From: an uncultured Chloroflexia bacterium
Lineage (GTDB): Bacteria > Chloroflexota > Dehalococcoidia > UBA2979
NCBI GenBank assembly: GCA_963728205.1
Contig: CAVSIV010000001.1
Location: 1,120,001 to 1,184,000, forward strand
Reading direction: 5' to 3'
DNA length: 64,000 nucleotides
Shown here: piece by piece, positions 33,556 to 60,118 of the stretch
How the letters are laid out: each line of letters opens with the position of its first letter
Position numbering within the stretch: position 1 is the first letter of the stretch
Position numbers and translations under genes: made by a program
Notes under the pieces: model-generated
Told to the model about the DNA's origin: nothing
The model's input: the letters and a program-made list of their open reading frames with translations, nothing else
Database searches by the model: none

Positions 33556-33557
33556 CG

Positions 33558-34732: not shown

Positions 34733-34789
34733 GTCCCTTCTGCACCGCGTCCGCCTCGCCGATGGGCGGGGATTCGCGGTGCGGGGACT

Positions 34790-34881
34790 AGCGTCGCGTC
34801 ATGAGGTCCAACTCAAGTCCAAGATCGCACCCAGATCGCACCAATCCATACCAAGATCAGTCCAAGATCGCACCAACGCGC
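34790..34881 (-). promoter_or_regulatory. 11-bp-phased direct-repeat array plus -10-like box for conjugation operon
   Basis: Seven units ~(A/T)CCAAGATCGC on + strand at 34807-34881; GAC-N10-GACGCT on coding strand. Confidence 0.7.
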
Positions 34882-35124
34882 TAGCTTCCGCGGGAGGCGC
34901 CTCACGGCACCAGGGCGGCGCGGATTCTCGATCCGTGTACGTTCGGCCGGACAAAGCAGGCGCAACGCCGCCACCCACCTGCTCGCCTCCGCTTTTGCGG
35001 CGGACGGCATCGCGCGTGTCCAGCGGTCAGCGCTTGGTGGGACAGCGCTCGCTCGCCCGACATGCCGGATACTTACTCAATTGTGAGGTGATCAGTCAGC
35101 GTCAGGACCGGTTGGCTGCTAGGA

Positions 35125-36654
35125 TTAGATGATCCCCTCTTCGCGTGCCTTGGACATGGCCGCCACCTTCCCGGAAACGCCGAGCTTGTCGTACAGCCGA
35201 TATGCATGCGTCTGAACCGTCCTCCATCCAACGCCGAGGAGATCAGCGGTTTCCCGGTAGCTCAACCCCTCCGACAGATGCGTCAACACCTCCACCTCAC
35301 GAGGCGTCAGGTTGCGGCCATGGCCGGCTGCCCGCTCTAACGCCACGGAGCGTACTGCGGCATAGCTGTGCGGCAGGGGGTCGATGGCGCGAGCGGATAG
35401 CGCCTCGCGCCCGGCGCGACGCAGCAAGATCGCCTCGCGCTCGGAGCGCGCCGTCCCCGCGAGCGCCAGTATCTCGGATAGTTGAACGCGGGCGAGGGCA
35501 GCCTCCAGATTGTACCCGGCAGCATCTGACCAACGAATCGACCGCCGGAGCGAGGTAACCCCACCCCGCCGATCTCCGTTCCGAATCTGGAGCAGGCCGC
35601 GGACTCGATCAGCTGAAACCGGCCACTCCATCGTTGATCGCACGTGGCGCGGCAATGCAGACCGAAGCCACTGCTCCCAGCGAACCGCTTCCGCCTGGGT
35701 ACCCGCGATAGCGACCGCCTCGGCACCAGCGAGGGCCGAAGGGAGCGACATGAGCGTCAGCGCAGGGGGAGGGTGTGGGCAATCGGCTACTGACTCTTGG
35801 CGATAACCGTCAATGAGGGCGCTGAATGACTCAGCGTTGGTCGCGTCGCGGTTTGCACCCGCCTCAACTGAGCGCAAGTGCCCAACCAGTTCTCGCGCCT
35901 CCTCCCAGTGAGCACCCACCACCGCCCGTCGAATCGCAAGCAATAACTCCCGCCAGCGAGTCAGGTAGTTACGGGACGCGAGCCGAGCGTGGCCCCCCGA
36001 TGGGCAGTCATTGATGCTCTGGAGAGCGGAGTCAAATGCGCGAGCGTCGTCCAGACGCCACTGACTGCCTGACTGTTCTGCCTGGACTCGCAGGGACTGT
36101 GCCCACGGACGGGCCCGCAACTGATCCCCTCGCGCCACCAACCATGGGACGAACCAGCTCTTCAAACCGCTCGCGAGCCACTCGTACCCGCTCCGCTCCG
36201 CTAGTCGAATGGGTTCGACGAACAGGTCGAGGTCAGCATCCTCAAGCAAGAGGCACGCAACGGTCGCAGAGTAGATCTTGTACTCGACGTCGGCGCGAGC
36301 GCTGCTAGCCGGGCATAGGAGTGCTGCGGCCCCCTGCAACGATTGGCGAGCGCCCCCGGGATCCCCGCTAATTGCCTCGTACGCCGCCTTCACGCACAGC
36401 AGGTGCATCACCGTATCGGGGACATCGCCAGCCATCCCGAGGCCAAAATCGAGTTGCGCCACCGCTTCCGGGAAGCGACCCTCGGCGTCCAGTCGGACAG
36501 CGGCGAGCATCGCGAGTTCCGCAACCTGGTCCGGTCGCTGCGCGCCGTAGGCTTCCGCGAGCGCCTGCTCGTAGATAGCCCGCCACTCCGCGCTCGACAG
36601 AGCGCCGGCACGGCGAAACTGCTCCCGAACTCGATCGACCAAGCTGTGCATCAT
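35125..36654 (-). CDS. LuxR-family regulator with helical-repeat N-terminus
   Basis: C-terminal LTPREVEVL..LSEGLSY.E.A..L....TVQTH...LY.KLGV. Confidence 0.82.
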   Translation of the reverse strand: MMHSLVDRVREQFRRAGALSSAEWRAIYEQALAEAYGAQRPDQVAELAMLAAVRLDAEGRFPEAVAQLDFGLGMAGDVPDTVMHLLCVKAAYEAISGDPGGARQSLQGAAALLCPASSARADVEYKIYSATVACLLLEDADLDLFVEPIRLAERSGYEWLASGLKSWFVPWLVARGDQLRARPWAQSLRVQAEQSGSQWRLDDARAFDSALQSINDCPSGGHARLASRNYLTRWRELLLAIRRAVVGAHWEEARELVGHLRSVEAGANRDATNAESFSALIDGYRQESVADCPHPPPALTLMSLPSALAGAEAVAIAGTQAEAVRWEQWLRSALPRHVRSTMEWPVSADRVRGLLQIRNGDRRGGVTSLRRSIRWSDAAGYNLEAALARVQLSEILALAGTARSEREAILLRRAGREALSARAIDPLPHSYAAVRSVALERAAGHGRNLTPREVEVLTHLSEGLSYRETADLLGVGWRTVQTHAYRLYDKLGVSGKVAAMSKAREEGII

Positions 36655-36665
36655 CGCAGACCACC

Positions 36666-36689
36666 TGACTTACCCGGGATCGTAAGTCA
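36666..36689. promoter_or_regulatory. Palindromic operator TGACTTAC-N8-GTAAGTCA
   Basis: Perfect 8-bp inverted repeat between divergent luxR-like gene and 36768 ORF. Confidence 0.55.
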
Positions 36690-36767
36690 ATCGACTGACG
36701 ACGGGGGGCACGTACTTCGCCATGCTGCCAGATACAGCGCAGCGGGCGGTAGCGAGAGGGTGAAGCC

Positions 36768-37181
36768 ATGGTCGTCCCAGAGTGTCTGCTATTGACGGAG
36801 TTCATCACAGACGTCCTTCGGGAGGACGAGGCGCTGCGAGCGCGGTTGCGGGCAATGCTGACAGCGGGAGCCTCATCCGGCGAGTTGACTGAGGCGCTCG
36901 CCGGGCACGCGGATGAGGGAACGGCCGAGACTATCCGGCACGAGTACTACGAGCTCCCCGAGTCGACCGTGGCGACGATCCTGACGGCATGGATGGCTGC
37001 TGAGAACGCGGGGCGGCCCTTCGTCCTCCGGTCGTCACCACCAGCCGAGCCGATTGCGGCGGCGCGCAAGCGCCGCGTCGAGATCTCGATCGCGATGGAC
37101 GAGGATGGCGTGGTAGTGTCCCTGTCCCACGTCTGGGATCGGCACGCCGATTGCTATAAACCGGTGATGACAGCGGCGTGA
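36768..37181 (+). CDS. Hypothetical protein
   Basis: Protein-like ORF with GAGAGG RBS. Confidence 0.6.
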   Translation: MVVPECLLLTEFITDVLREDEALRARLRAMLTAGASSGELTEALAGHADEGTAETIRHEYYELPESTVATILTAWMAAENAGRPFVLRSSPPAEPIAAARKRRVEISIAMDEDGVVVSLSHVWDRHADCYKPVMTAA

Positions 37182-37254
37182 TTTGAGTCTAATGCCGCCG
37201 CAGCAGTTCTGGTGGCAGGACCTTGGAAGGGGCCGGTCAGGATGCGAGTGATCG

Positions 37255-37551
37255 ATGCCCACCGAGCCTTCGCGCGTAGTGCTACCAAGGATCACGATGC
37301 GCCGCGCAACTATCCTGCGGGACATCGCTGCCGGCTTGACGCTCCGCGAGATCGCGGAGACACAATCCCTCTCCTTCAATGGCGTGCGTAGCCACGTGGA
37401 GGATCTCAAGAACATCACGGGGTGCACATCTGTCCGGCAGCTAGGTCAGTGGTGGCGTGCGCACCGAGCTGAATGGATAAGACTAATGAACATGTGCGCC
37501 CGCGATTCGGAGCACGATCGTTTGATTCGAAGGAGGAGGCGGCTGCGTTAA
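37255..37551 (+). CDS. Small LuxR-type HTH protein
   Basis: ILRDIAAGLTLREIAE...S..GVRSHVE.LK. Confidence 0.7.
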   Translation: MPTEPSRVVLPRITMRRATILRDIAAGLTLREIAETQSLSFNGVRSHVEDLKNITGCTSVRQLGQWWRAHRAEWIRLMNMCARDSEHDRLIRRRRRLR

Positions 37552-37599
37552 GTGACAACGACCGGTCCAATCATCCGCGACTATCCGCCAACTGATCAC

Positions 37600-37870
37600 G
37601 ACTGAAGCAATTGATGATGACCTTCAACCCCTCGGCTTGGTTCGCTGCATGACTTGCACGTCTCGGAGAACCCTACGCCCGCGCGTCGCTTACACCAGCT
37701 TCCGGACCGCGACCTAGTGCGACGTCCCGGTGAGCGGACAGTTGAACTCTGCGATCCGGATCTGTAACGCAAGCGCGGACAGCACGGGGGCGCGGCGTCT
37801 CGCTCCGGATCCCCCGATTGGCGCAAGCGAACAGCGCCCGCCTTTCGTCGACGGTGAGGAGGGCCACGAC
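37600..37870 (-). pseudogene. Possible decayed tyrosine recombinase fragment
   Basis: Across frames LTVDE...LF, RD.A, IRIAE-like box I pattern; very degraded. Confidence 0.25.
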
Positions 37871-37919
37871 ACCGTCCCTGTACTCTGTCTTCCTTCGAGG
37901 GACCGCAATCTGAGGGTGG

Positions 37920-38900
37920 TTACTTATGGTGATCACGGCGTCGTTGACGGCGATGGCGGTGCGAGACGAGCTCGTAAAGAGGTCCTCGGCCTGGGTCACG
38001 GTGTGCTCATGCGCATGCCGAAGTCGTCGCGGATGAGCAGCTCGGGCGAGAGGTGGCCACGCAGCCTGGGCTGCCAGCTGTGTGGTCGGCGCGGCCACCG
38101 GCGAGATCGACGAGCAGCGCCTGGGCTGGTGAAGAGCCGACCCTAACGGCAGGCCGCCACGCCGAGGGCCTGCGCGAAGAAGGTCTTCCCGACGCCGGTG
38201 GGCCCGCAAACCAGCACGCTGGGGTGCTCTTCGAGGTAGCGGCGAGCGGCGAGTTGCCAGAGTTCGGCCTTCGGGATCTCCGGGTTGTAGCTGAAGTCGA
38301 AGTCGCGCAGGTCGTACGCCTCGTCGAAGCGCGCCCGGCGGATGCGGCTCGCCATCCCGGCGGCCTCGCGGCGCCTGAGCTCGTCGTCGAGCAGCAACTC
38401 GAGGAACTCCACCGGGTCGAGGCCGCGCGCGCGTCTCCTCCACCCGCGCGGTGTTTCGCCTCCGGCATCCCGGATAGCTGCGAGCCGCAGGCGTGGCGCC
38501 AGCGCCCGACACCGCTCATCGCGCACCTGCCGTCGCGAAGGCGGCCGGTCCGCGGAGGTAGGCATCGGCGGCGTCCGGACCTGGAGGCTGGTCGGGCGGC
38601 TCCGCGAGCCCGCGCTCGAGCAGGCCCCGCACCGTGCGGAGCCGCCCGTCGCCCGGCATCCAGCGCCGGCCGGTAAGCCTGCTCCAGCCCCTCCTCGCCG
38701 TCCCAACGATCAGGCGCAGCACCTACCTGCACCTCGCGGAGGTGGTGCAGGGCGTGCGTCTCGAGCACCGCGCCGACCAGCTCCCGGTCGCGGTCTCGAC
38801 CACACGGGCGCGACGCAGGCAGGCCCGCGGGGTGGCTCAGGTCTTCTATACTCGCCGCCGTCTGCACAGGGGCCCGATCTTCTTCAAACGCGACAACGCG
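37920..38900 (-). pseudogene. IS21-family relic (istA 3' part and istB), multiply frameshifted
   Basis: IstB: LRL, EFLELLLDDE, DFDFSYNP, GPTGVGKT, LLI.DDFGMR; IstA C-terminal LEQA..AL..GD...RTV.GLLE. Confidence 0.8.
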
Positions 38901-39171
38901 ACGGCCGATTGAACCGAAGCAACTCGACCTTCTCCAGACTCAGAGCGAACTACCGAACGCCGCGGCGCTGGCCGCTGCGGAAGGCCGGCTGACCCACCGA
39001 TGCCCCCCGAACCTGCTCCGCCACGTCCCCCTGCAAATCGGGACGCGGCTCTCGACGAAGACCAGATCGTGCGTGAAGAACCGGCGATGGACCTCACCTT
39101 TCGCGCGAGCCCGACCCACGCCCGACTCTGGCTAGCAAACCGTCTTCGGGCCCGCGCCGCCTGTCGCGCGG

Positions 39172-40110
39172 CTATCTAAAAGTCCGTCCTGACCGCTCAC
39201 CAGGGCGGTGAAGCATGGCGGACCGCCCGAGCAACAGAAGCGCGAGCGCAACGACGCCCAGCAGCGCTCCTCCCGCCAAGCTCGCGCGGCCTTCGTCTAC
39301 TAGGCCAGCATTCCCTGTGGGTGCGGGAGTGGGAGCGGGTACGGAAGTCACGGTGAACTCGACAGGCGCTCCGACGGGAGCGGCATCCGGCTGCGCGGCG
39401 CGCCTCACAGACAGTTCGAAGTGGGCACCGGAGTCGCAGGTGTCAGCAAGCGACGCACGAGGAATCTCATACTTCAAGGCACCATCGGGCGGAACGGCAA
39501 GCCCCGCCGAGATGAACTGGCCGGCGTCGGGTTGGTCGATTCGGCGAAGGAAGAAGCGCACCTCCAGCCCGGACGGAAAGCCACGAGTAGTCGCTGCGAA
39601 TGACGCGGTACACGGTGCCTGCATTGGGCTAAGGAACAGTTCGGCAATAGGAGTGCAGGATCCCTGTGGTTCGATCTTGCGGTCCGCTAGAAGAGAACAA
39701 ACCGACGGCGGGTAGAGTTGATCGCTCGGCACTACCTGGTACCCAGCGAATGCAATCGTACGGCCTGGCTGAAAGGCCGGATGGAACGGGCGAAGTACGC
39801 CGCGAAAGTCGACGAATGTCAAACTGGCGCCAGCCTCGTGACACACATCCGGTTGGCTTGCCTGGCCGACTTGGATCTCACTGTAACGAGTCAAATCTAT
39901 CTCTGTGCAAAATGTGTCATTAGCGAAGATGAATACGCCTCCTCCAAGAACGGACCCGGCGTCGCCACTTACAAGCGGGAACCCAACCTCTGCCGGTGGA
40001 GGGAACGTGATCGTCGCCCGTTGCTCGGCAGGGGCTTGACCCACAGCCGCAGTAGTGGTGAGAACCAAACAAACTGTGACTAAGGCAATCGCAAGTCCGC
40101 CACGCAGCAC
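39172..40110 (-). CDS. Secreted surface protein with sortase-like C-terminal sorting signal
   Basis: Signal peptide; PAPTGNAG + TM + basic tail. Confidence 0.65.
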   Translation of the reverse strand: MLRGGLAIALVTVCLVLTTTAAVGQAPAEQRATITFPPPAEVGFPLVSGDAGSVLGGGVFIFANDTFCTEIDLTRYSEIQVGQASQPDVCHEAGASLTFVDFRGVLRPFHPAFQPGRTIAFAGYQVVPSDQLYPPSVCSLLADRKIEPQGSCTPIAELFLSPMQAPCTASFAATTRGFPSGLEVRFFLRRIDQPDAGQFISAGLAVPPDGALKYEIPRASLADTCDSGAHFELSVRRAAQPDAAPVGAPVEFTVTSVPAPTPAPTGNAGLVDEGRASLAGGALLGVVALALLLLGRSAMLHRPGERSGRTFR

Positions 40111-40194
40111 TGGTTCCCCGCTCTCACCTTCACCCGCTGAAAGAGCAGACGCGGGCTAGCAAGACGCCCCCGCCCGCCTCCGAAGAAATTGGCT

Positions 40195-41097
40195 CTACTG
40201 TACCACAACAGTCACGTTCGCATTGTCTCCATATGGCTGGTGAAGATTATCAGCGTAGCCCCGAGGGAAGACGCCGAAGGTCCAAGTGCCTGAAGGTTGT
40301 CCCGTCCACGTTCCTCCGCTCGAGTTCTTCGTGGTGGCACCAACATATGTCCAGCTGGAGCCCGTCCAGCGCCAGATACTGAAATCAGCCTCATTGTGGA
40401 CGTTCGAGGGATCCCACGAGAGCGATACCCCACCGGCATATGGCGACGAACCACTAAGGCTCGAAACGGCGTCGATGTGGTACGCGTTGTGGTAATTCGT
40501 GAGGTCCAGCGTTTGTGGCGTCGTGTACCAGCAAGTTTCTGTCGTGTCCATCAGCGTGGCACCTGCCGGGCAGCCAGAGTAATCCGCATGACCAAAGACG
40601 TGGCCCAACTCATGCGTCACGTCGCGTGACGTGTGGGCCGCCCCATCTGCCCAGCAGGATCCACCACAACCGAACAAGCTTGGATTGACCCAAACCGTGG
40701 TCGGGTTATTGAGACTGTAAGAAGGATCCCCGGTCGTGCTCGTTGGTGCCGTGCACATGTGCGCGCCAGACGTGCAGTTTGAAGAGAACCCGCTGGTCGT
40801 GACCGTCACGGATGCCGGACAAGTGACGGAGCTCAGGGCCGTGAAACCTAGCGCGGAGTTCCACCGTGAGACACCCGTCGAGGTCGAACTTGTGAACCCG
40901 CTGCTGCAGACCGTGACTGCGGTTCCGCCGATCAGGCCCTGCTGCAGGCCGTAGTTCCAACCAGCTATGAGGTGGCCGTCAGTGTGATCAGCGTGCGCGA
41001 CCTGCTGGCCAAAGAAGCCGGCCATGAAGCCGCCTGACATCACGACGAACACCGCTAGAAGCAGTAGCCAGCGATTTCGGAACTGCGAAGTGTTCAC
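40195..41097 (-). CDS. Secreted metzincin zinc metalloprotease with FN3-like C-terminal domain
   Basis: Signal peptide ending AHA; HELGHVFGHAD; Met-turn TLMD; VSLSW...FSIWR...WTFGV. Confidence 0.75.
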   Translation of the reverse strand: MNTSQFRNRWLLLLAVFVVMSGGFMAGFFGQQVAHADHTDGHLIAGWNYGLQQGLIGGTAVTVCSSGFTSSTSTGVSRWNSALGFTALSSVTCPASVTVTTSGFSSNCTSGAHMCTAPTSTTGDPSYSLNNPTTVWVNPSLFGCGGSCWADGAAHTSRDVTHELGHVFGHADYSGCPAGATLMDTTETCWYTTPQTLDLTNYHNAYHIDAVSSLSGSSPYAGGVSLSWDPSNVHNEADFSIWRWTGSSWTYVGATTKNSSGGTWTGQPSGTWTFGVFPRGYADNLHQPYGDNANVTVVVQ

Positions 41098-41579
41098 GGC
41101 GTGCTCCTGACTGAGGATGTAACATCGTCGAAGAGCTCGCCAGGAAGGCTTCCATTGGCCCCTGGAAGCCTGTCGACCTCTGTACCCTTGGCCCCGTCAA
41201 TTCGAAGCAACGCGCCAGTCTGAGGATCCTCGAAAATGAGCAAGAGGAGGCCGCCAGGATCGTTGACTGTTGCGACCTTGTAGGCGAGCTCGCCGCCGGC
41301 CGGGACCGTCAGATACCAACCCGTTCCGTCCACGCGATACGTCCCGGATCCGACCTCATCACCCCAGCGAACAATGGGGACTCCCCTCGCATCGAACTTC
41401 GGCGGGGATGAAGAAGGGCCCGGGGGAAGCGGCGGCAGGGCAGTGGGCCCCAGGGGTGGCGGGGTTGCGGACGGCGGGGGCGCACCAGCGCCAGGGGCGC
41501 CAAGTGCAACGCCAGCGCCGACGCTTAGGGCTGCTACCAGGACAAGGCCCGCTACGAGCGCGATAGGATTCCTTCTCAA
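41094..41579 (-). CDS. Secreted hypothetical protein, Pro-rich linker
   Basis: Signal peptide; GAGGAG RBS; 4-bp overlap with protease gene. Confidence 0.65.
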   Translation of the reverse strand: MRRNPIALVAGLVLVAALSVGAGVALGAPGAGAPPPSATPPPLGPTALPPLPPGPSSSPPKFDARGVPIVRWGDEVGSGTYRVDGTGWYLTVPAGGELAYKVATVNDPGGLLLLIFEDPQTGALLRIDGAKGTEVDRLPGANGSLPGELFDDVTSSVRSTP

Positions 41580-41834
41580 CGCGTTTGCTCCTCACCTACG
41601 GTTCGGGTGTCGCCTTCATCGTCTTAGATCATGCTTCGGCGCCCCCCTCTACTTCGCACTACGCACTACACCGTCGCTTCTATCTGTAATACGTGAACAC
41701 GAATAAGACCCAATGCGTACCGTAATTGTGATCGGTCGATCTTGCGCTCTCCTCCTCGACGGTCGCGGGGTAGTAGTCGAGCTGCGCCTCCGCCCGGGGC
41801 CGTGCGGTGTCTCTAGCACCCGACACCGCGCCCC

Positions 41835-42500
41835 GCTCGTCGAGAAGCCGCGCTGGTCCCCACGCTCGAGCACCGTGCGGAGCCACTCGGCGTCCTCGTA
41901 GGCCACCTCACGTCCGATGGATGCGGTGCGACCGCCGCGTGCGCCGAGCAGGCGCGAGCACTCCAGCTCCACGAGGCGGCGGGGGAGGCCGCGATCACCT
42001 CATTCGAGCCGCGGGGCTCGACGTGGGGGCTGAGGTCCGAGCGGGGTCCTCGAAATCGACGAGGCGGCCGAGCCAGTTCGGGCTCACGTGTCCCGTGCGG
42101 TCGGTGAGCGCGAGCATGCGAGGGATGTACGTGCATCGCGACGTACGCTCGCGTCTCCGGGCTCGCCGCCGGCGCGACGAGGTCCGCGGCCGAGCTTGGC
42201 GAGCGCGAAGCGACCGCGATAGCTGGAGCGGGCGGGCGCGGCCATCGCCTGGTGAGGGGCGACGCAGCCGGCTACGCACTGCCGGCCTCGAGCACGGGCC
42301 GGGAGCGCGTCATGATCGCGGTCGCCCACAGGTGTGCCGCCCGCGCGGGCGGCGAGGCGACGCCCACCGTTCCCCGCCAAAGCGCGAGGGCGTCCGCCGT
42401 CTGCCGCTCCATCGACACCCCGAGGGCCGCGAGCGCCTGCGCCACGTCGTTGCAGCGAAACGCGAGCAACGGTCGCGCGGCGGCGAGGTCGCTCTGGGCG
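41835..42500 (-). pseudogene. Decayed second copy of virB4 5' end and upstream gene 3' end
   Basis: Colinear nucleotide similarity to 30695-31363; HVSPNWLGRLVDFE, REVAYED, LAFRCN.VAQAL retained. Confidence 0.85.
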
Positions 42501-42519
42501 GCGGGCGTCGGCGCGAGCA

Positions 42520-43062
42520 GTCCCCTTTCTACACGGCTTCCGCCTACATCGCGGGCACGCGGGTGACGGCGCGGGAGATTGCCGCCCTCTACCGGCACGG
42601 TTTGACCGGCGAGCGGATCGGCGAGGAATTCCCGGACGTACCGCTCAGCCACATTCATGCGGCTGTCGCCTACTCCTCGCGAACCGTGAGCGGATCGATG
42701 CCGATCTGAGCGCCGAGACCGCTTCTGTCTCGATGAAGACGTGGGTCGCGCGCTCCTGCTCGCGCTTCGTGCGAATGGGATCGACGTGCTCTCGATGGTC
42801 GGGCGGACAGCGCGGGCAGCCGGGCGCCACCCAACTCGCATTCGCGACGGCCAGTGGTCGCGTGCTTGTGACGCGCAACGTCAGCGACTTCGCCGTCCAC
42901 CGGGGGGATGCTGACGAGTGGGCGCACCAAGCCAGCATCATCGCGATCTCCCGCCAGCGATTCGCGGCCGGGCTCCACGCGGCCGCACTCGCCCGCCTCG
43001 CCGCTCGCTTCACCCCGGAAGAGACGACCGGGGGCATGAAGTACCTGAGCAACTGGCGGTAG
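42520..43062 (+). pseudogene. DUF433 antitoxin / DUF5615 PIN toxin pair, truncated and frameshifted
   Basis: IAGTRV...I......G...E.I.EEFP......IHAA.AY; QLAFA...GRVLVTRN..DF. Confidence 0.7.
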
Positions 43063-43175
43063 TGCGAGGTGGCACCGGACGCCGCCGCCTGGATGCGTCG
43101 CATCCCGTCGTCACTACAACCCGGCGAGGGAATTCCGCCGTGCCCCTTGGCATCGGGAGTACTTGGCAGCAACGT

Positions 43176-43994
43176 ATGGACCGGATGAGCGCGACTCGCG
43201 CGAGCTACGACGCGGACCCGCAGTCCGAGTGGGAACGCTTGGACGGACGGGTGCAGAACCGGATCGAGTATCTGGTAACCATCCGCCGCGCTCGAGCGGC
43301 ATCTGCCGCCACCAGCAGCGCGTGTGTCCGTGCTCGACGCCGGCAGCGGGCCGGGCCGATACACCATCGACCTTGCGCGCCGCGGCTACAGCGTGACCTT
43401 GCTCGATCCGAGCCCGCAGGTGCTCCGTCTCGCTCGTGAACGGGTCGCGGCGGCGGGCAACATGGTGTCCGCCCGTGTCATGGGGATGGTTGAGGGATCA
43501 ATCACCGCCCTCCCAACATCGACGGATCGTACGTTCGATGCCGTGCTCTGCGTTGGAGGTGTGCTCTCGCACCTGCTCGACGCGCGCGAGCGTCTCGCCG
43601 CGCTGCTCGAGCTGCGCCGGGTCGCTAAGCCCGGAGCGCCGATCGTCATCTCCGTGTTGAACCACCTCGCCTCGTACCGGGCGGCGGTGCTTTGGCCGGG
43701 ACTGTGGGACACCTGGGATCCGGCTTTCCTCGGCGACACTCGCACCGCGCCGATTGCGAATGGCGCCCTCGTGTATGAGTTCTGGCCGAGGAATTCGCCG
43801 CCGTGCTCTCTGAAGCAAGACTGACCATCAGAGACGTATACGGCTGTCAGAGCCTGGCAGCACATCTCCCGGCAGCGCGTGGAGACTCTGATGGCGGATC
43901 CACGACGCTGGACGCAGTGCCGCAGCGCGCTCCTCAGCAGAGCCAACGATCCGGGCGTCGTCGGGCTATCTTGCCATCTCATCGCCGTCACTGA
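43176..43994 (+). pseudogene. Class I SAM methyltransferase, frameshifted
   Basis: EWERL, VLDAGSGPGRY, FDAVLC.GG.LSH, RV.KPG. Confidence 0.7.
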
Positions 43995-44020
43995 AGCGAC
44001 GACATAAGCGGCACCGTCGC

Positions 44021-48026: not shown

Positions 48027-48045
48027 CGCGGGCTCCGACTCCGTG

Positions 48046-49532: not shown

Positions 49533-49534
49533 CG

Positions 49535-50992: not shown

Positions 50993-51018
50993 GTCCTCCT
51001 CTCCTCGTCACATGGGTT

Positions 51019-51957: not shown

Positions 51958-52809
51958 CGGAGCACCCGCCAATCGGTGGGCAGCGCCGCCGCCCGGCGCA
52001 TCAGCGCGTAGCCGGCCGCCACGCTCAGCAGGCAGAGCGCGAGCACCGCCTGCCCCCCGGGGGACGAGAAGACGTCGAGGTAGCCGGGGTTGCTGGCGCG
52101 GATCGTCACGATCAGCACGAGCGGCAGCGCCGCGATCACCCGCGCCGAGAGCACGTGCTGCGCCTGCTGGGCGCGCACCTCGCGCCGCACCTGCAGGCTC
52201 GCGCGCACCGAGCGCCCGAGGCCGTCGAGCACCGCCGCGAGGTTGCGGCCGCCAAGCCGGTAGGCGGTGAGCAGGGCCGCGACCAGCACGTCGAAAAGCG
52301 GGTCGGCCACCCGGTCACGCGTGCGCCGCGCCGCCTCCTCGAATCCCGAGAGGCGGGCGTCGCGCTCCATCGCCTGGAACTCGCGCCGGAGCGCCGCGGG
52401 GCCGGTGCGCCCGAGCGCGTGGATCGCCTCCTCGAGCCCCAGTCCCACGCGCACGGCGTCGCGCAGCGCGGCGACGGCCTCGCCGACGGCTTCCTCGACC
52501 TCGGCGCGCTCCCGCGCCGCGCGCTGGCCGAAGTACCAGGAGGGGAGCCCCAGCCCGACCGCGGTCGCGGCGAGCGTCACCACGGGCCAGCCGAAGCACG
52601 CCTGTGCGATAGCGCCGGCGACCGTGCCACTGGCTGCGCTCGCCAGCGCGAGCTCGCGCAGGCCCACACCGGGGACCGCCCGAGCGCGCCAGCGCGTCGC
52701 GCAGCCGGCGGCGCGCCGCGTCTCGCTCGCCGCCGCCCCGCCGCCCGGTGGCGGCGAGGTAGATCAGCAGCACGCCGGCGCCGAAGGTCATGCTCAGCAG
52801 GACGTTCAC
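51954..52809 (-). CDS. tadB: TadB (T2SS F domain), frameshifted
   Basis: LRDAVRVG.GL.EA, GG.NL..VL, SARVIAALP, PGY...F....GQ. Confidence 0.82.
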
Positions 52810-52829
52810 GGCTCCCTCCTCAACGCCCC

Positions 52830-52942
52830 ATGGTCCCCGCGGCAGGTCCCAGTACGGTCCAAGACCGCACTCAGATCGCACCAATCGCTCCAAGATCGCG
52901 CCAGGATCGCACTCACCCGGCCAGGAACCCGCCGAAATCGCA
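52830..52942 (-). promoter_or_regulatory. 11-bp-phased direct-repeat array plus -10-like box, internal promoter of tadB
   Basis: Units TCCAAGACCGC, ACTCAGATCGC, TCCAAGATCGC, GCCAGGATCGC etc. at 52847-52942; GAC-N10-GACCAT on coding strand. Confidence 0.7.
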
Positions 52943-52951
52943 CGGCGCGCA

Positions 52952-54221
52952 TCAGCCGCCCCGCTCCGGGCCCGGGTAGCCGGCCGCGAGCAGCCGCGCC
53001 TCGCGGCGCGCGCGGATGCCCGTCCAGCGCAGCACCCCCTGGTCGAGCGCGAACAGCTCGTTGCCGGCCACGGCCTCGCCCTCCATGCCCGTGACCTCGT
53101 AGACGCTGGCCAGCACGCGGCGCCCCGACGGGGCGAGCTGCAGGTGCAGCACGAGCTGGATCGCCTCGGCAATCATCTCGGTGAGCGCCTGGGCGGGGAG
53201 CGCTTCCTCGGCCATCAGCGCATAGGTGCGCAGCTTCGTGAGCGCCTCGCGGGGGCCGTTGGCGTGGATCGTGCACATCGAGCCCTCGTGGCCCGAGTTC
53301 ATCGCGGTCAGCATGTCGAGCGCCTCGCCGCCGCGGACCTCGCCCACCACGATCCGGGTCGGCCGCATGCGCAGCGCGTTCTGGACGAGCGCGCGGATCG
53401 CGATCGCGCCGGCGCCCTCGACGTTCGCCGGGCGCGCCTGCAGCGCCACGCAGTCGGGCAGCACCGCCTCGAGCTGGAGCTCGGCCGTCTCCTCGATCGT
53501 CACGACGCGCTCCTCGAGCCCGGAGATCGCCGAGGCCGAGGGCGTTGAGGCAGGTGGTCTTGCCGCTGCCGGTGCCGCCGGAGATCAGCATGTTCAGCCC
53601 GGCGCGCACGGCCGCCTGGAGGAAGACCGCGGCCTCCGGGGGCAGCGTCTCCAGCGCGACCAGCTCGTCCAGCGAGCGCGCGCGCAGCAGGAACTTGCGG
53701 ATGGTGACGTGCGTGGCGCCCGAGGTGAGCGGCGCGATGACCGCGTTGAGGCGCGAGCCGTCGGCGAGCCGGGCGTCGACCATCGGGCTCGTCTCGTCGA
53801 GCCGGCGCCCCAGCGGCCCGATCGCGCGTCGCACGAGCTGCAGCAGCTCCGCGTCGTCCTCGAACACGACGTCGGAGAGGCGCTTGCGGCCGCCGGCGAT
53901 CGCGAACACGCGCTCGGGGCCGTTGACGATGATCTCCTCGACCTCGGGGTCGTCGAGCAGCGGCTGCAGCGGCCCCAGGCCGAGCAGGTCGTCGAGCACC
54001 CGGCGCACGAGCGCCTCGGGCTCCCCGACCGGCGGCTCGCCGAGCGTCGCGGCGCGACGATTCGCGGCGGCGATGCACTCGAGCACGAGCCGGCGCGCCG
54101 CCTCAAACTCCACGGGTCCGGGCGCGAGCAGCGCCTCGACGTCGAGGGTGCGCCGCAGCTCGGCCTGCACCTCGCCGCGGATCGCCCGCTCCCGGGCGTC
54201 GGCCGCCGCGAGCGTCACCAT
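52952..54221 (-). CDS. tadA: CpaF/TadA pilus ATPase (frameshift near 53535)
   Basis: [64 protein letters not shown]. Confidence 0.9.
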
Positions 54222-54222
54222 C

Positions 54223-55395
54223 TCAGTCGGCCCCCGCCAGCCGCGGCACGAGCGGCTCCGCCACCGCGTCGCGACGCGCGCACCGCCGCGAGGCCGTCGG
54301 GCAGCGCCCGCAGGTCGCGTGCCGCGCGCCCGCCGCACCGGGGCAGCGGGAGCTGCCGATCGATCGCTCGCCGCGCGGCCTTGCGGTCCTCGCGCACGAC
54401 CGCCACCACCGGCATGCCCAGCACGCGCTCGATCTCGTTCGCGGTCGTAGTGCTCGCGTCCCTCCAGGCGGTTCACGACGGCGGCGAACGCGGTCCCGTC
54501 GGGGACGTCGTCCGCGATCCACCGCAGTCCGACCCGCGCATTCCAGACGGAGACGAGAATCGGCGCCGGTCACGAGCAGCACCTCGTCCGCGCAGTCGAG
54601 CACGCTCAGGTCCGCCGGCACGCCGGTGTCGACGACCACCGTCTCGAAGCGCGCCCTGAGCGCGTTCAGCACCCCGGCGAGCAGGTCCCGGGCGCGTGCT
54701 GAGCGCCAGCTCGGGCCGCTCGAAGCCGGCGAGCACCGCGCACCCCGGGCCTTCCTGCAACTCGTCGGTCACCTGCGCGCCGGGCGCCGCGAGGCCCACG
54801 AGGCCGCGCCGCGGATCGAGGTCCAGGTGGGGCGCGACGTTCCCGGTGCGGAGGTCGGCATCGACGAGCGCGACCGACCCGCGCTCGCCCGCGAGCGAGG
54901 CGAGCGCGATGCGCGAGCGTCGTCTTGCCGGTCGAGCCCTTTCCGCTCACGACGGCGACGACACGGCCGCTGCCTTCGCGGTCTTCCCGCGTTCGCGGTT
55001 CGGCAGGCGGTGCGTCCGCCACGGTTGGCCGTGCACCGCGGCTCTCCGCAAGGCGAAGCGCCGACGCGATCTCCCCGCCGCTGGAGGTGGCCGGGAGGAC
55101 GCGCGCGAGGGACGCGAAGGCCTCCGCGTCCGCTCCCGGGGGCGTGAGCGCCACCACCGGCAGCCGGCGTTCGCGCAGCGCCGCGAGCGTCGCCGGGCTC
55201 AACTGGTGCAGGTCGGTAGAGACCAGCGCGACGTCCACGCCCGGCGCCCGCGCCTGCTCCAGCAGGTCGGCCGCGCTGAGGCAGCGGGTGACCACCGTGA
55301 CGCCCTCGCGCGGAAGCTCTCGCGCCAGCCGACGCTCGAGCGCGCGGTCGCCGACGGCGAGCAGCGCGCGGATCGCGAATCGCCTCGCCGCTCAT
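54223..55395 (-). CDS. CpaE/TadZ-like (receiver-like + MinD ATPase), frameshifted
   Basis: [27 protein letters not shown]. Confidence 0.75.
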
Positions 55396-56086
55396 CGTGC
55401 GTCCCCTGCGCGGCGGCTGCGAGCTGCGCAGCAGCGAGCGTGAGCTGCGCGTTCACGACCGCGTCGGCGAAGCGCTCGGCGTCCGCGCCAGGGATGAGGA
55501 GGGTCACGTTGCTGACGCGACCGCTCGCAGCGGCTGAGTCGTGCGCGCCGAGCGTCACGCTCGAGGTCGCGCGCGACACGTCGTAGACCGTCGCGTCGTC
55601 GAGCAGCGTGCTGCTCTGGCTCTGCGGCTGGCCCTTGTCGGTCGTCGCGACGACGGTCACGTGATCGCCCGGGTGGAGCGCCGGGTAGACCGTGTCGGCG
55701 TTCACCGGGACGGTGACCGCGAGCTGGTCGGCGCCGATGGTCGGGACCGAGCCCAGGTCGGGTCGCAGCACGAGCGCGCCGGCGGGGATGGCCTGCTGCG
55801 CGGTCTGCCCGACGAGCGCCGCCAGGTCGGGAGCGGCCACCGCCAGCGCGGCCGGCGGCCCGTCGAGCCGCGCCTGCGCCGTGGTCAGGTCGTCGCTGCT
55901 GATGACGTGCCCCGCCGGGATCGCGTGCGCCGCGATCACCACCGGCTGCGTGATCCGCGCCTGGTCCGCGAGGCGCACGCCGCCGATCACCGCGGCCGCG
56001 ACGAGCACCACGCCCACGAGGAGCCGCACGTCCACGTGCGGCAGCGCTGCCGTTCGCCATCGCCGCCCGGAGGTAGTGATCGCCAT
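55392..56086 (-). CDS. CpaB/RcpC SAF-domain protein (3' end approximate)
   Basis: TM then VVIAAH.IPAG..I..DDL, L.PGD.V.V, VTL. Confidence 0.82.
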
Positions 56087-56095
56087 CGCCCTGCC

Positions 56096-56374
56096 TCAGC
56101 CTTTGAACTCGTGCCCATTGCGCGCGGGATGTGCCCGCGGTCCCCACCGCCGCCGCGCCACGAACCGCTCGCCGTCTGCCCAGCGCTGCTCGACCTGCTT
56201 CAGCCACGCGCCGAGGAACGACGCGGCCTCGTCTGAGTCGGCGAAGCGACGCTCGGTCTCGGGGTGGCCGTTGCCGGGGTGGCGGATCAGCACACGCAGG
56301 CGCCGTTCCTGGTCGGGCTCAATCCAGGCGCGTACCACCAGCCAGTCGATGAGCGTGCGCGGGTCGCTGGTCAT
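56096..56374 (-). CDS. Small hypothetical protein, first gene of tad operon (probably leaderless)
   Basis: LVVRAWIE...; TAGCGT -10 7 nt before ATG. Confidence 0.65.
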   Translation of the reverse strand: MTSDPRTLIDWLVVRAWIEPDQERRLRVLIRHPGNGHPETERRFADSDEAASFLGAWLKQVEQRWADGERFVARRRWGPRAHPARNGHEFKG

Positions 56375-56381
56375 GCCGGCG

Positions 56382-56412
56382 ACGCTACCCGACGCGCGTC
56401 TCAAGTCGCGCC
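56382..56412 (-). promoter_or_regulatory. Tad operon promoter: repeat-unit variant plus -10 TAGCGT
   Basis: GGCGCGACTTGAGAC-N10-TAGCGT-N7-ATG; same spacing as the other three sites. Confidence 0.6.
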
Positions 56413-56639
56413 ACAGGTCTTCGCCGCACCGCCCTTCGCGGGTCGAACGGCGATCGCTCGAACGCCGACTCCCGACCGATCCGGATTCGCAACGGCGTCG
56501 CGCAACTTCGGCGCGAATTGAGACGGGTCTGCGATGCCGCCACCGCAACAACGCATGCAATGCGCGCGTTGGACGGAGCAGACGCAGGTCTGCCGCGTCG
56601 CCGAGACCGGCGGCGGCGCGGCGTGCGGGGGACCCTCCG

Positions 56640-57425
56640 GTGACCGCAGAGCCGAGCACAGCACCGCGGCCTGGCCGCCTTCAGCAGGCGCGTACCCCGC
56701 GCTGGCGCGTGTGCCTGCTCCCCGCCTTCGCCCTGCGGGCCGGGGAAGTTCCGGTCAAGGTGCCCGCGGCCGGGCGCCGCCTCGCCACTTTGCTCGCGCT
56801 CTACCCGGGACCGCTGACGGCACAGCAGGCGGCGTCGATGCTCTGGCCCCGCCTGTCCGAGCGCCAGGCAGCGTCGAGCCTGCGGACCGCGCGCTGGCGG
56901 GTGCGCGCAGCGAGCCCCTCGCTCCTCGTCGACGACCCGTCAGGGCTGCGGCTGCATCCCGACGTCACGGTGGACGCATGGGAGCTCGAAGCGCTCGCGC
57001 TCGACATGACCGAGCGTCCCGCGGACGTGATCGACACGGATCCGCGCCGGTTCGCGGCCGAGCTGCTGCCCGACTCCCGCGACGACTGGGTGCTCGCGCA
57101 GCACGCCCACCTCCGTGAGCTCTGCCTGCGCGCGGTCGAGGCGCAGGCGCGCCACTACCTCGCCTCGTCCGACTACGGCTCCGCGAGCAATGCCATCTAC
57201 GTGGCGATCACGATGGAGCCGGAGCGCGAGAGCGCTACGCGGACGCTGATGGAGATCGATCTCGCAGAGGGGAACCAGATCGACGCAGTGCGCGCCTATT
57301 TGCGCCTCGAACAGCGACTGGCGAGGGACGGCACCGCGCCGTCCAATGCGCTCCGCGCGCTCGTCGCACCGCTGCTCGACCAGCTCGCCCCCGGCGCGGC
57401 CGAGCGACTCTTGCGCTGGAGCTAA
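56640..57425 (+). CDS. SARP-like wHTH-BTAD transcriptional activator
   Basis: RL..LLAL, A.MLWP, SLRTA.WR, V.VD..E, ELLP...DDWV, EP.RESA...LM, PS. Confidence 0.82.
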   Translation: MTAEPSTAPRPGRLQQARTPRWRVCLLPAFALRAGEVPVKVPAAGRRLATLLALYPGPLTAQQAASMLWPRLSERQAASSLRTARWRVRAASPSLLVDDPSGLRLHPDVTVDAWELEALALDMTERPADVIDTDPRRFAAELLPDSRDDWVLAQHAHLRELCLRAVEAQARHYLASSDYGSASNAIYVAITMEPERESATRTLMEIDLAEGNQIDAVRAYLRLEQRLARDGTAPSNALRALVAPLLDQLAPGAAERLLRWS

Positions 57426-57523
57426 CGGCCTCTCGTGCCCAGGACAGACGAACTCCGCCGGAACAGATGCGTTGCCGATCCACCCATCTGCTCTCGACGA
57501 GCGGTGAAGCGAAGAGCCCACCC

Positions 57524-57563
57524 TTGACGCCTCCGCGACGCGGTGTACTGTACATATAGTACA
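57524..57563 (+). promoter_or_regulatory. Sigma70-like promoter with palindromic operator
   Basis: TTGACG-N16-TACTGT overlapped by TGTACT-N8-AGTACA (57544-57563). Confidence 0.55.
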
Positions 57564-57587
57564 TTCACTGTATGAGGGGGGTGGCTT

Positions 57588-58037
57588 GTGGAAGAGATCG
57601 ACTTCACGCTCGACGGCGACCGGTACCACTTGAGCCGGGAATCGGTGATCCGCGCGATGCGGAAGCAGACTCCCGGTCGCATTCAGACCTACGCCGTTGA
57701 CGTCGAGGGCGTGCGATTCCCTGTGAAGCAGGTCCTAGCTCAGGCCCTCCAAATCCCGGTAACCACGTTCGTGTCCACGAGAGCGCAGGATCTGCTCGAG
57801 AAGCTCGACTTCAAGGTCATCAATGTCGAGATGGACGACGCGAGTTCCGGTGTCGATACACCAGAGGGACAGCGAGCGCTCGCCCTGCAGCTCGCCGTGG
57901 AACTTCTGAAGATGCGATCAGACGCGCAAGCCGCCGACGCCGTCGCTGCGGCTTCGGACTTCCTGCGCTGGTTGACAGCCTCGTCAGCGGCGGTGCCCAA
58001 CCCGAACTCGCTGCCGAAGCCACGCGCGGCGTCCTAG
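57588..58037 (+). CDS. Hypothetical protein, SCO5918 / McrA-head-like domain
   Basis: Y.V.V.G.RFPVKQV......F....A...L.KL.F pattern; family call from memory. Confidence 0.55.
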   Translation: MEEIDFTLDGDRYHLSRESVIRAMRKQTPGRIQTYAVDVEGVRFPVKQVLAQALQIPVTTFVSTRAQDLLEKLDFKVINVEMDDASSGVDTPEGQRALALQLAVELLKMRSDAQAADAVAAASDFLRWLTASSAAVPNPNSLPKPRAAS

Positions 58038-58212
58038 CGGCCACGTGGGTAGGCCCTGGCACTCCGTTCTGCGACCACCGCGCATGCGAGCTGGCTGCGG
58101 TCGTGCGTGCACAAATCGGCGGTGCTGCAAACCCCGTCACACAGTACGACCGCGACTTGGGCCTGACTGAGCACGAGCGCGTCGACCCGATCGGATGGTC
58201 CGCCGCTGGGAA

Positions 58213-58497
58213 CTACTGCTTTGGCCGTCGCCCTCGGCGAGCGGCTGATGCGCTCTTCTTCCACACCAGTGTGCGCTGATGCCCGTCCGTCCAACTCGAA
58301 CGAACGTTGATGCCGAGTTTCGCGGCGGCATCGGCAAGCCGTCGCTTCACGGTCGACGCAACTTCCCCTCGCTCGAGTGCGATCTGTCCCGCGTCAGCGG
58401 CGCGCAGAGCATCGAGATATGGCTTCCGTGCTGCGACCGCGGAACGCTCTCGTCCGATGCTGACTTCCTCTGGCTTCAACTGGACGAACTTCGGCAC
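58213..58497 (-). CDS. Small basic putative DNA-binding protein
   Basis: GEVASTVKRRL..AA..LG; RRGRRPK AT-hook-like tail. Confidence 0.6.
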   Translation of the reverse strand: MPKFVQLKPEEVSIGRERSAVAARKPYLDALRAADAGQIALERGEVASTVKRRLADAAAKLGINVRSSWTDGHQRTLVWKKSASAARRGRRPKQ

Positions 58498-58634
58498 GAA
58501 CTTCCCTCGTCTCTTCCAGCCGGGATTCCAGTGACGATAGCGTCCTCCTGGCCGGCCGCGAACGCCACTCTCCGAAACACATGAGTTCGCGCAGCAATCC
58601 GTATCGCCCATTGAAGCCGAGGGAGGGCTCTCAC

Positions 58635-59802
58635 ATGCCACAGGGACGCTCGTTCACGCGCGAGGAACTGCATGCCTTCGTGTGGTCCGAACCGGTCAGC
58701 AAGAATCGCGCCGCGCTTCGGAACCTCCGGCGTCACGCTCGCGAAGATCTGTGCCGGCGCGCGCATCCCGGTGCCGCAACGCGGGTACTGGGCGAAGCGT
58801 CAGTTCGGGAAGCACGTCGAGCCCGATCCGCTTCCTCTGCGCGCGCCCGGTCAGTTCGCACGGGTCTACGTTGGCTCGCGGAGGCCCGGCCGTTCGTTCC
58901 CCACGGTCGACGACCAGCAGCGCGCGCTGGTCGCGCCGGAGTTCCCCGACGACATCGTCGAGCTCACCGCGGCCGTTCGCCTGCGCGTTGGACGCCCACG
59001 CGCGCCGCGTCTCGAGCACCGTACGCACCCGCTCATCGATCGGTTGCTCCAGGAAGAGCGGCAGCGGCAGGGCGACGCCACGACCCCGACGTACATGCGC
59101 CGCGAGCCTCGGTTCGCGTCACCCCTCGACCGGCGCCGACTGCGCATCGTGAACGGCATCTTCCTCGCCGTTTCCCGCGTCGACGCGCGTCCCGGGCTCC
59201 AGGACTTCGGCGAGCTGCGCTTCGGGGTCACCGTGAGCGACACGTGGGTGCCATTCGTCATCGAGCGCGCCGCCTCACACAGCCGGCGGACCTCTGAGGC
59301 GCACGCGTCACTCGAGCTGCGCATCGATGTGCGCGACGTCTCGCACGACCTCGGTGCGTGGGACGAGCGGGAGCGCCCACTCGAGGAGCAACTCGGCGAC
59401 ATCGTCACCCGCATCGTCGTCGCTGGCGAGATCGTCTACCGCCACTGGGAGCGCGAGGTCTACGACTACACCGTCGCCGAGCGGCAGCGCCGCCGCGACG
59501 AGGCGGTGCGGATCGAGCGCGAGCGGCGCGAGGCCGATGACCGGGCACGCGTCAAGCGGCTGCTGCGAGAGGCGGGGTGCTTCCGCGACGCCGCCGTCAT
59601 CCGCGACTACGTCGCCGCCGCTCGAGCGGCGCACGCGGACGCCGCGGAGCCCGTCGACCGCGAGCGGTTCGAGGCGTGGGCGACTCGGGCGCTCACGCAG
59701 GCCGATCGCCTTGATCCCGTTACCTCCGGCGAGTACCTGCGCGAATCCGACAGCCCTGTGAGCGGCGATCGTGTGAGCGGCGAGCACCTGCCGTTTGCCT
59801 GA
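58635..59802 (+). CDS. Mobile-element-associated protein with N-terminal HTH (frameshift near 58705)
   Basis: TREEL..VWSEP...A..G.S...LAKIC....IP.P.RGYWAK; C-terminal WA...ADRLDP. Confidence 0.65.
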
Positions 59803-60042
59803 GCGACCGGGATCCTCCGCGCGGTGAGCGGCGCGTGGCGTGCGCGGTGTGGGCGAGCGGCTCTCGCACGAAGCGTGTGCGTGTCCAGATCACCAATCAT
59901 CCGAGGGCAATTTCGCTCCAACTTCGCACCAACCCGGCGACGAAGCTGCGCGAATGCGCCCGTTCCGCGTGACCGACCGCCGGACGGCCGCGCGCTCCAG
60001 CCTCTCCCTGGCTCATGGGGCGCTCGCGCGGACCGATCCGAA

Positions 60043-60118
60043 GTTGGCGCGAATCTGGATGGGTTGGCGCTATCTGGGTGCGATCTTGGACCGATCTGGG
60101 ACCTCCGCTGCGTAGCGT
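60043..60118 (+). promoter_or_regulatory. 11-bp-phased direct-repeat array plus -10 TAGCGT for rightward operon
   Basis: GCTATCTGGGT GCGATCTTGGA CCGATCTGGGA C; reverse complement of the 34807 and 52847 arrays; GAC-N10-TAGCGT. Confidence 0.7.

Follow-up and report, generated by a model that had tools for sequence, protein, structure and literature searches.

The element and its repeat arrays

We analysed a 64,000-nucleotide stretch of DNA from an uncultured Chloroflexia bacterium (contig CAVSIV010000001.1, positions 1,120,001 to 1,184,000), hereafter the window, whose G+C content is 71.5%. It carries an integrative and conjugative element (ICE) in which three operons are preceded by phased arrays of direct repeats with a period of about 11 bp. 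An earlier note on this DNA had read the region as an ICE that also holds a tad pilus locus and a primase/Rad52 arm, and our annotation agrees with it: we found a serine recombinase at the transfer-messenger RNA (tmRNA) gene, Replic_Relax, a coupling protein, VirB4, a type IV secretion system (T4SS) pilin, PrgI, SLT and a TrbL-like protein, together with the pilus locus and the primase/Rad52 arm. At the level of domains, the genes by which a T4SS-type ICE is recognized were present (Replic_Relax, TraG-D_C/TrwB, TraG P-loop/AAA_10, T4SS pilin, PrgI, SLT and TrbL_4), the matches for the relaxase (Replic_Relax) and the coupling protein being weak.

The tmRNA gene lies at 21767-22124, and the gene for the large serine recombinase (21943-23760) overlaps its 3' end. 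The ICE is therefore integrated at ssrA. Islands at ssrA with serine recombinases occur in Dehalococcoides. An attachment-site (att) repeat of the tmRNA 3' end was not found elsewhere in the 64-kb window, and the far att end presumably lies beyond base 64000.

The arrays, the -10-like hexamers that follow them and the operons towards which they read are as follows.

34808-34881, minus strand: array 1, six to seven units of about 11 bp of the TGCGATCTTGG type, reading towards the T4SS operon
34790-34795, minus strand: -10-like hexamer GACGCT, 10 nt past the last GGAC of array 1
21943-34745, minus strand: transfer operon after array 1, with genes for the TrbL-like protein, SLT, T4SS pilin, PrgI, VirB4, a primase, the coupling protein, Replic_Relax and the serine recombinase
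52847-52942, minus strand: array 2, about eight units, in the 285-bp gap between tadA and tadB
52830-52835, minus strand: -10-like hexamer GACCAT after array 2, then 20 nt with GGAGG and the GTG start of tadB at 52809
44024-52809, minus strand: operon after array 2, with tadB, tadC, flp, tadE/G and genes for a PKD protein, a LysM membrane protein, o45839, the regulator SARP1 and a prepilin peptidase
60043-60102, plus strand: array 3, five to six units, reading towards the primase/Rad52 arm
60113-60118, plus strand: -10-like hexamer TAGCGT after array 3
60731-64000, plus strand: operon after array 3, with o60731, o61323, o62437 and a primase-Rad52 fusion, running off the window

The three arrays were found where the earlier note had placed them, and each is oriented to its downstream operon, as it had also claimed. 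The TrbL-like protein has a signal peptide and is encoded from about 34745 onward, shortly after array 1; the true start of tadB is the GTG at 52809, which has GGAGG before it. Tandem Repeats Finder called a period of 11 at 34819-34876 (array 1, 5.4 copies), at 52859-52912 (array 2, 5.1 copies, with the same consensus as array 1) and at 60072-60103 (array 3, 2.9 copies). In the 66 nt before the ten-base spacer that separates array and hexamer, arrays 1-3 have 31, 34 and 32 self-matches of 55 at a lag of 11; the background in the window is 15.7 +/- 3.7, and at most 0.04% of the sequence windows scored reach these values. The 11-mer given in the earlier note has four exact copies in the 64 kb, all inside the three arrays. 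A two-unit pattern matched nine times against 1.42 expected, a number that none of 100 shuffles reached, and eight of the nine matches fall in the arrays. A weight matrix built from arrays 2 and 3 only recovered array 1 with a score of 31.0. The best site outside the arrays in the 64-kb window scored 17.3. A strict k-mer chain detector missed most of the arrays and was dropped.

The earlier note had also summarized four promoters, the three above and the start of the tad locus, by the pattern GAC-N10-(T/G)AnnnT. All four hexamers are as placed there, with GAC and ten bases before each, but the pattern alone is uninformative; it occurs 18 times in the window versus 35 times expected from shuffled sequence.

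Promoter geometry in the window and in related elements

The relatives of the element were collected by one genome scan. A tblastn search of plasmids with SARP2, a regulator encoded next to the tad locus, gave relatives of 28-38% identity in unrelated contexts (contractile-tail genes, arsenic genes), and for this reason the scan was made with an alignment of CpaB and its three database relatives instead of SARP2. It returned 15 loci, which were fetched with 10 kb on each side of cpaB, a span outside which the T4SS side falls. Thirteen loci (L003-L015) are syntenic, and all are labelled as Chloroflexota or Dehalococcoidia metagenome-assembled genomes (MAGs); L016 (a Mycobacteriales MAG, 28% identity) and L017 (Hyphobacterium) were set aside as distant. 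A DNA search of 52700-60300 against plasmids had matched generic cpaF genes only.

According to tblastn, the loci share a gene order of the primase-Rad52 arm, a variable stretch, and SARP2 divergent from o56099-cpaB-tadZ-o54476-tadA, followed after tadA by a gap of about 290 bp and tadB-tadC-flp-tadE/G-PKD-LysM-o45839. In the tadA-tadB gap, a phased array, a hexamer, a ribosome-binding site and the tadB start were found in all nine loci that cover it. At the primase arm, units, ten bases, TAGCCT or TAGGCT and, 14 nt on, a conserved non-coding stretch were found in 6/6 loci. An array thus keeps its place and its N10 spacing in the related elements. By their lag-11 signal, seven of the nine tadB arrays of the relatives rank in the top 0.7% of sequence windows; the remaining two are at 4-5% and have units of 21-22 nt. 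Three of the six primase-arm arrays are in the top 2% (L003 and L007 below 0.4%, L008 at 1.8%), L014 is at 10%, and those of L004 and L006 are not significant because they are short.

Together with window arrays 1-3, the nine relatives at the tadA-tadB gap and the six at the primase arm give 18 promoters. In all 18, 11-nt blocks ending in GGA(C/G/A/T) are followed by ten variable bases and an nAnnnT hexamer. The ten bases vary freely, and their number is constant. In the window, arrays 1-3 all close with GGAC, ten bases and the hexamer; in the coding direction their last units are TGCGATCTKRG, TGCGRTCTTGG and ACnnnnnTKGG, and then come ACCT, eight bases and the hexamer. Downstream, the tadB start codon lies 17-21 nt past the hexamer in 9/10 sites, and the conserved leader of the primase arm begins 14 nt past it in 7/7 sites.

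Since the direct repeats are in tandem and belong to a mobile element, with one array beside a primase arm, they could also be iterons or partition (centromere-like) sites instead of promoter elements. Typical iterons, however, have units longer than 11 bp. Moreover, each element has three to four clusters, each oriented to an operon, and not a single cluster beside rep or par; the arrays keep a fixed distance from the -10 hexamer and from a start codon or leader; and one of them lies within the tad operon. We find this explanation barely conceivable.

A hexamer resembling TTGACA was not seen 16-18 nt from the -10 hexamers in the aligned promoters, and a consensus scan of 52000-61000 returned no sigma-70-type promoter. 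Promoters of this kind are known for activators of the SARP family. An excerpt of PMC10936776 describes SARP sites as direct repeats spaced 11 or 22 bp, with the 3' repeat 8 bp from the -10, and the afs box as two 11-bp repeats across -40 to -19. The direct repeats found here have this spacing, with compound units of 21-22 nt in L006, L008 and L009. Between the closing GGACCT of each window array and the hexamer there are exactly 8 bp, both the repeat boundaries and the -10 being putative themselves. If transcription starts about 7 nt past the hexamers, the two proximal units would fall on -40 to -19. The layout of the arrays fits published SARP promoters, as far as that excerpt describes them, and is consistent with the SARP/OmpR-type geometry suggested in the earlier note. 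The context differs: the elements are ICEs and all 13 syntenic relatives are Chloroflexota MAGs, whereas those promoters belong to secondary-metabolite clusters of actinomycetes.

The start of the tad locus belongs to another promoter class.

56374-56412, minus strand: promoter of o56099-cpaB-tadZ-tadA, with TAGCGT at 56387-56382, 7 nt, and the ATG at 56374; at most one degenerate unit

The earlier note had counted 56397-56412 as a shorter variant of the arrays. This does not hold, since the site has no 11-bp periodicity (17/55, a score that 39% of sequence windows reach) and its identity to arrays 2 and 3 (14/33) is at background. With the window included, 12 tad-start sites could be compared, and at none of them was the background fraction for periodicity below 0.19. 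An nAnnnT hexamer stands exactly 7 nt before the o56099 ATG in ten of the 12 sites (TAGCGT, TAGGGT or TACGGT in nine, CAGATT in L004), L013 and L014 being without it. At 10-11 nt upstream of the hexamer, most lineages have a TGCAAC-like element, which is independent of the array unit. Because the tad start is non-periodic and without a lineage-specific unit, we took it out of the regulon; judged by these features, it is a putative conserved promoter of the leaderless type that is outside the array regulon and separately controlled. Short GCGnnGCAA-type repeats further upstream in the SARP2-o56099 intergenic region, spotted by eye, are statistically weak (best-window background fractions 0.004-0.24) and serve as a lead at most.

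Two further features accompany array 3.

60133-60245, plus strand: leader RNA candidate of about 110 nt, non-coding, starting 14 nt after the array 3 hexamer
59885-59940, minus strand: short divergent array of two to three units, then 14 nt and GATGAT at 59901-59896, pointing away from array 3

The leader is 76-82% identical (blastn) in five relatives, where it lies on the minus strand (L003 7960-8057, L007 6350-6478, L008 4296-4416, L006 2109-2229, L014 8153-8257). The alignment supports a fold of six helices and 29 pairs in which 95.5% of cells are paired and five pairs have compensatory changes; slid controls gave 35-44% paired. No match to Rfam was found at E-values up to 1. The leader is thus a candidate for a new structured leader RNA or small RNA of the primase/Rad52 arm. 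Just before o60731, the window also has a small open reading frame (ORF) at 60560-60690 (plus strand) with a GGAGG-like site ahead of it. It has a counterpart in L003, L004, L006, L007, L008 and L014, and in these relatives the product has an arginine-rich start and then a hydrophobic tail.

The divergent array, on the strand opposite to array 3 and some 170-200 bp upstream of it, was found in the window and in all six relatives that cover the position (plus strand; L003 8537, L004 6353, L006 2477, L007 6684, L008 4663, L014 8494). It has lineage-specific units, a 14-nt spacer often ending in GCCCTCG and a GATnAT-like hexamer. No conserved ORF was found downstream of it. It aims into the 3' end of SARP2 in L003, L013 and L014, and in the window it is antisense to SARP2 and the cargo genes. 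From this orientation, it may drive an antisense transcript.

To the right of the transfer operon, the window holds a LuxR-family gene, a decayed stretch, the complete tad locus (minus strand), the divergent SARP2 and two cargo-like genes. The coding signal is poor at 36700-44000, where an IstB fragment lies at 38146-38706 and where part of the VirB4 region (30695-31365) is present again, 71-87% identical, at 41835-42500.

Lineage-specific units and candidate binding proteins

The repeat unit differs between lineages of the element.

Window: GATCTKGGAC
L012-L015: CTGGAY
L007: GGAACG
L011: GGGAGCG
L004: TGGGRCG
L006, L008 and L009: GTGGAG or GTGGAC plus a second half-unit, giving a period of 21-22 nt
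L003: AGGAAG

Only the GGA core at the block end is common to all lineages. In the five elements for which both arrays were available, the anchored identity between the tadB array and the primase-arm array was 28, 24, 22, 26 and 23 of 33. The 59 cross-lineage pairs of arrays had a mean of 14.1/33 (standard deviation 3.1) and a maximum of 20. Because the arrays within an element agree better than any cross-lineage pair, the comparison points to one element-encoded DNA-binding protein that would read both arrays, with sites and protein changing together.

It might be asked whether RNA polymerase itself reads the units, as rows of -35-like elements for a housekeeping or alternative sigma factor and with no dedicated activator. 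The unit cores do resemble a -35 (TTGGAC in the window, GGAAC in L007), and the GGA core is present in all lineages. A -35 would be expected 16-18 nt from the -10, however, and the nearest cores are at 10 and 21 nt. Outside the core, the unit is lineage-specific and co-varies within an element, which a host sigma factor would not impose, and the protein annotation of the window showed no gene for a sigma factor in the ICE. We therefore hold a direct reading by sigma factor to be highly improbable.

Three MAGs each carry two lineages of the element (L009 and L011; L008 and L013; L010 and L015). The units differ in the first two pairs (GTGGAG versus GGGAGCG or CTGGAC); L010 and L015 were assigned by SARP2 lineage only, as L010 stops short of its arrays. 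Co-resident elements could have insulated regulons, although binning errors are possible in these MAGs.

The earlier note had proposed that one of two ICE-encoded proteins with a winged helix-turn-helix and a BTAD domain is a master activator.

44490-45518, minus strand: SARP1, with Trans_reg_C (E-value 2.6e-6) and BTAD (PF03704, E-value 5.7e-15), near the end of the tad operon
56640-57422, plus strand: SARP2, with a winged helix and BTAD (PF03704, E-values 2.4e-10 and 4.2e-11), divergent from the tad start

Both are SARP-domain proteins, with an OmpR-type winged helix and the BTAD domain directly after it, and Pfam, profiles against AfsR and EmbR, and the structure model of SARP2 agree on this. 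The profiles of both proteins span the whole SARP domain of AfsR (8hvr_I; E-values 1.1e-13 and 3.9e-8) and EmbR, the SARP2 profile aligning to residues 36-281 of AfsR and 8-254 of EmbR. Only the profiles matched; single-sequence phmmer searches of PDB sequences with SARP1 and SARP2 returned nothing, and the winged helix of SARP2 had no Pfam match. In the SARP2 model (pLDDT 93.2, pTM 0.84), the strand-helix pattern of a winged helix is present. The top six PDB structures in Foldseek are EmbR and AfsR in transcription initiation complexes (TM-scores 0.68-0.72), and the N-terminal domain matches the PhoB effector domain on pho box DNA (1gxp) with a root mean square deviation of 2.8 over 86 columns.

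Which of the two would act on the arrays is a matter on which we lean slightly towards SARP2. SARP2 is specific to this element family, is encoded in all 11 relatives that reach its position, and its gene has the tad start on one side and the divergent and primase-arm arrays on the other. The similarity of arrays between loci correlates with the identity of the SARP2 recognition helix (Spearman 0.63, from non-independent pairs in six lineages), and the same correlation is 0.38 with the whole DNA-binding domain and 0.44 with the BTAD domain; this is a hint that the unit sequence tracks the recognition helix. In favour of SARP1, its gene sits in the last part of the operon behind array 2, an arrangement that would produce positive feedback. 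The fetched DNA barely reaches SARP1, of which a part was seen in L004 only. Since relatives of SARP1 are found beside LysM proteins in the tad loci of actinobacterial plasmids and of L016, it may be an older, tad-specific regulator. Such loci also hint at a joint action of SARP1 and the LysM protein. In the window protein (46443-48026), three hydrophobic segments flank the LysM domains, and it looks membrane-spanning. A match to SARP1 on a Chloroflexota plasmid (H54) turned out to be a large TPR protein in an unrelated context.

The binder could instead be the LuxR-family protein or one of the conserved proteins without known function. A distance of 245 bp separates array 1 from the LuxR-family gene (35128-36654), which is upstream of it, on the strand of array 1, and whose product has a GerE helix-turn-helix (E-value 4.4e-11). 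GerE-type proteins, however, usually bind inverted repeats as dimers, not 11-bp direct repeats. The classic reader of 11-bp direct repeats is the SARP fold, as described in the excerpt of PMC10936776 and in keeping with the structural match to PhoB. A binder other than a SARP is thus improbable in our judgement.

From the sequences compared here we infer binding by a SARP, its action as an activator and not a repressor, and transcription starts at the positions given above. We regard it as rather probable that arrays 1-3, and probably the divergent array too, are the sites of one ICE-encoded SARP activator and form a regulon of the class II type. In this mechanism, SARP protomers, each an OmpR-type winged helix with a BTAD domain, would sit side by side along one DNA face, one every 11 bp. 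The pair of units next to the promoter, at about -40 to -19, would stand in for the missing -35, and, in the manner of class II activators and of AfsR, the SARP would recruit RNA polymerase to the weak -10 (nAnnnT). A single SARP would thereby jointly switch on the T4SS/transfer operon, the tadB-onward half of the pilus locus, and the leader RNA with the primase/Rad52 arm. If SARP2 serves the arrays, the conserved elements of the GCAAC type at the tad start would be left to SARP1. The master regulon of the earlier note is thus kept for the three operons that share the array architecture and given up for the tad start.

An element-specific repressor or silencer, whether a SARP or not, could also coat these promoters and silence the ICE until it is induced. 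In keeping with this, the sites have many units and reach into the promoter, one unit is used at several operons of an element, and the element encodes conserved small proteins without assigned function. A repressor, however, would not need the spacing to the -10 to be kept invariant between lineages, and array promoters without their own -35 would require an activator anyway. BTAD proteins are moreover known as activators (PMC10936776, in the excerpt). Repression is therefore an unlikely explanation.

Several points weigh against activation by a single SARP. The arrays have five to eight units, whereas two to three repeats are usual for SARPs, and SARPs have been described in actinomycetes, whereas the syntenic relatives are 13/13 Chloroflexota. 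Array 1, on the T4SS side, was compared within the window, since the fetched loci stop short of that side. The 14-nt spacing of the divergent array, in place of 10, misfits one rigid geometry. The -10 hexamers were picked by hand among nAnnnT candidates, so the N10 rule is partly circular; the constant distance from hexamer to start codon or leader is not affected by this choice. Six conserved small proteins (o56099, o54476, o45839, o60731, o61323 and o62437) are further candidates for the true binder. Pfam gave no match for five of them, and for o54476 none was found with either the 108-aa ORF (54476-54799) or the overlapping 149-aa ORF in another frame (54226-54672). Finally, the reading frame changes within the TrbL-like gene (about 34440), tadB (about 52680) and tadA (about 53525), all on the minus strand. 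In L007, tadA is in a single frame (coordinates checked), and the tadB match begins from residue 1 in L004 and L007. The ICE copy in the window may be decaying, or the assembly may contain indels.

A fuller version of the SARP regulon would be a private two-SARP switch. One SARP, possibly coupled to LysM, would act on the tad start, and the other on arrays that have diversified with its recognition helix, without cross-activation between co-resident elements; it would also fire the leader RNA and an antisense promoter at the regulator gene. We offer this as a doubtful extension. If true, conjugation would be governed outside Actinomycetota by an orthogonal master regulon based on SARPs.

Comparison with known regulatory systems

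A close counterpart of the pilus locus is the tad locus of Microbacterium sp. No. 7 plasmid A (L018), which has the same gene order and ends with the LysM protein, the SARP1-like domain and the prepilin peptidase. A table in PMC3666418 likewise lists a 'LysM, BTAD' protein in the tad locus of a Cutibacterium acnes plasmid. On the Microbacterium plasmid, LysM and a C-terminal SARP1-like part are in one 1137-aa protein (L018 11343-14756), whereas they are separate proteins in the window; the SARP1-like part was detected by tblastn (29% identity, E-value 1e-7), and Pfam reports LysM only. Because tadA and tadB overlap there, this locus has no internal array, and neither SARP2 nor a primase arm was seen in the plasmid stretch. 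Upstream of its tad operon is a phased 11-bp repeat, the top lag-11 window in 28.7 kb (27/44 versus 11.6 +/- 3.1). It consists of CGCAATA-type units (L018 1455-1521 and 1662-1680) with inverted copies near; these units resemble the GCAAC-type elements at the Chloroflexota tad start.

The operators of PhoB and PhoP, which belong to the OmpR family, are likewise made of direct repeats, with several 11-bp units that are recognized by this type of winged helix, and multi-unit pho operators are known. Unlike PhoB and PhoP, the proteins considered here have no receiver domain or phosphorylation; they have the BTAD domain instead.

As a master regulator, the proposed activator resembles SetCD of the SXT/R391 ICEs, one element-encoded activator with boxes at many promoters of its element (PMC4344509, excerpt). 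In the same excerpt, the SetCD boxes overlap or abut a missing -35 in a class II-like manner, some promoters are divergent and back to back, and the motif has element-specific polymorphisms. AcaCD of IncC plasmids belongs with SetCD as a master activator. SetCD and AcaCD differ, however, in that they are FlhDC-like heteromers that act on a single long box in Gammaproteobacteria, with no winged helix or 11-bp arrays.

In the full text of open-access papers and bioRxiv preprints, we found no regulon of the SARP type that belongs to an ICE or is linked with a Tad pilus and T4SS, no arrays of five to eight units diversifying between sister elements, and nothing on the regulation of gene transfer in Chloroflexota. 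Matches to 'BTAD' in PMC12075869 were journal article codes in the reference list. Regulons of ICE master activators and SARP direct-repeat promoters are each known; their combination outside actinomycete antibiotic clusters appears to be undescribed. The lineage-specific units would be a natural set of matched activator-promoter pairs usable for tests of orthogonality, and the fixed geometry would allow exact predictions of transcription starts and of the effects of spacing mutants.

A close regulatory likeness is to the Streptomyces SARP promoters, AfsR at afsS and those of the ActII-ORF4, RedD and DnrI types. These share with the system proposed here a protein with a winged helix and BTAD domain, direct repeats of 11 or 22 bp, a fixed short distance to the -10, and repeats that replace a poor -35 (PMC10936776, excerpt). 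They have two to three units, whereas five to eight are present here. The sequence identity of the ICE proteins to AfsR and EmbR is only about 21-23%, and the arrays are predicted sites. The targets would be conjugation, pilus and replication operons of an ICE in Chloroflexota-type hosts, not antibiotic clusters. In conclusion, SARPs have been studied almost only as switches of antibiotic clusters in actinomycetes, whereas here the SARP architecture and promoter geometry appear to run the conjugation, pilus and replication modules of a Chloroflexota-type mobile element.

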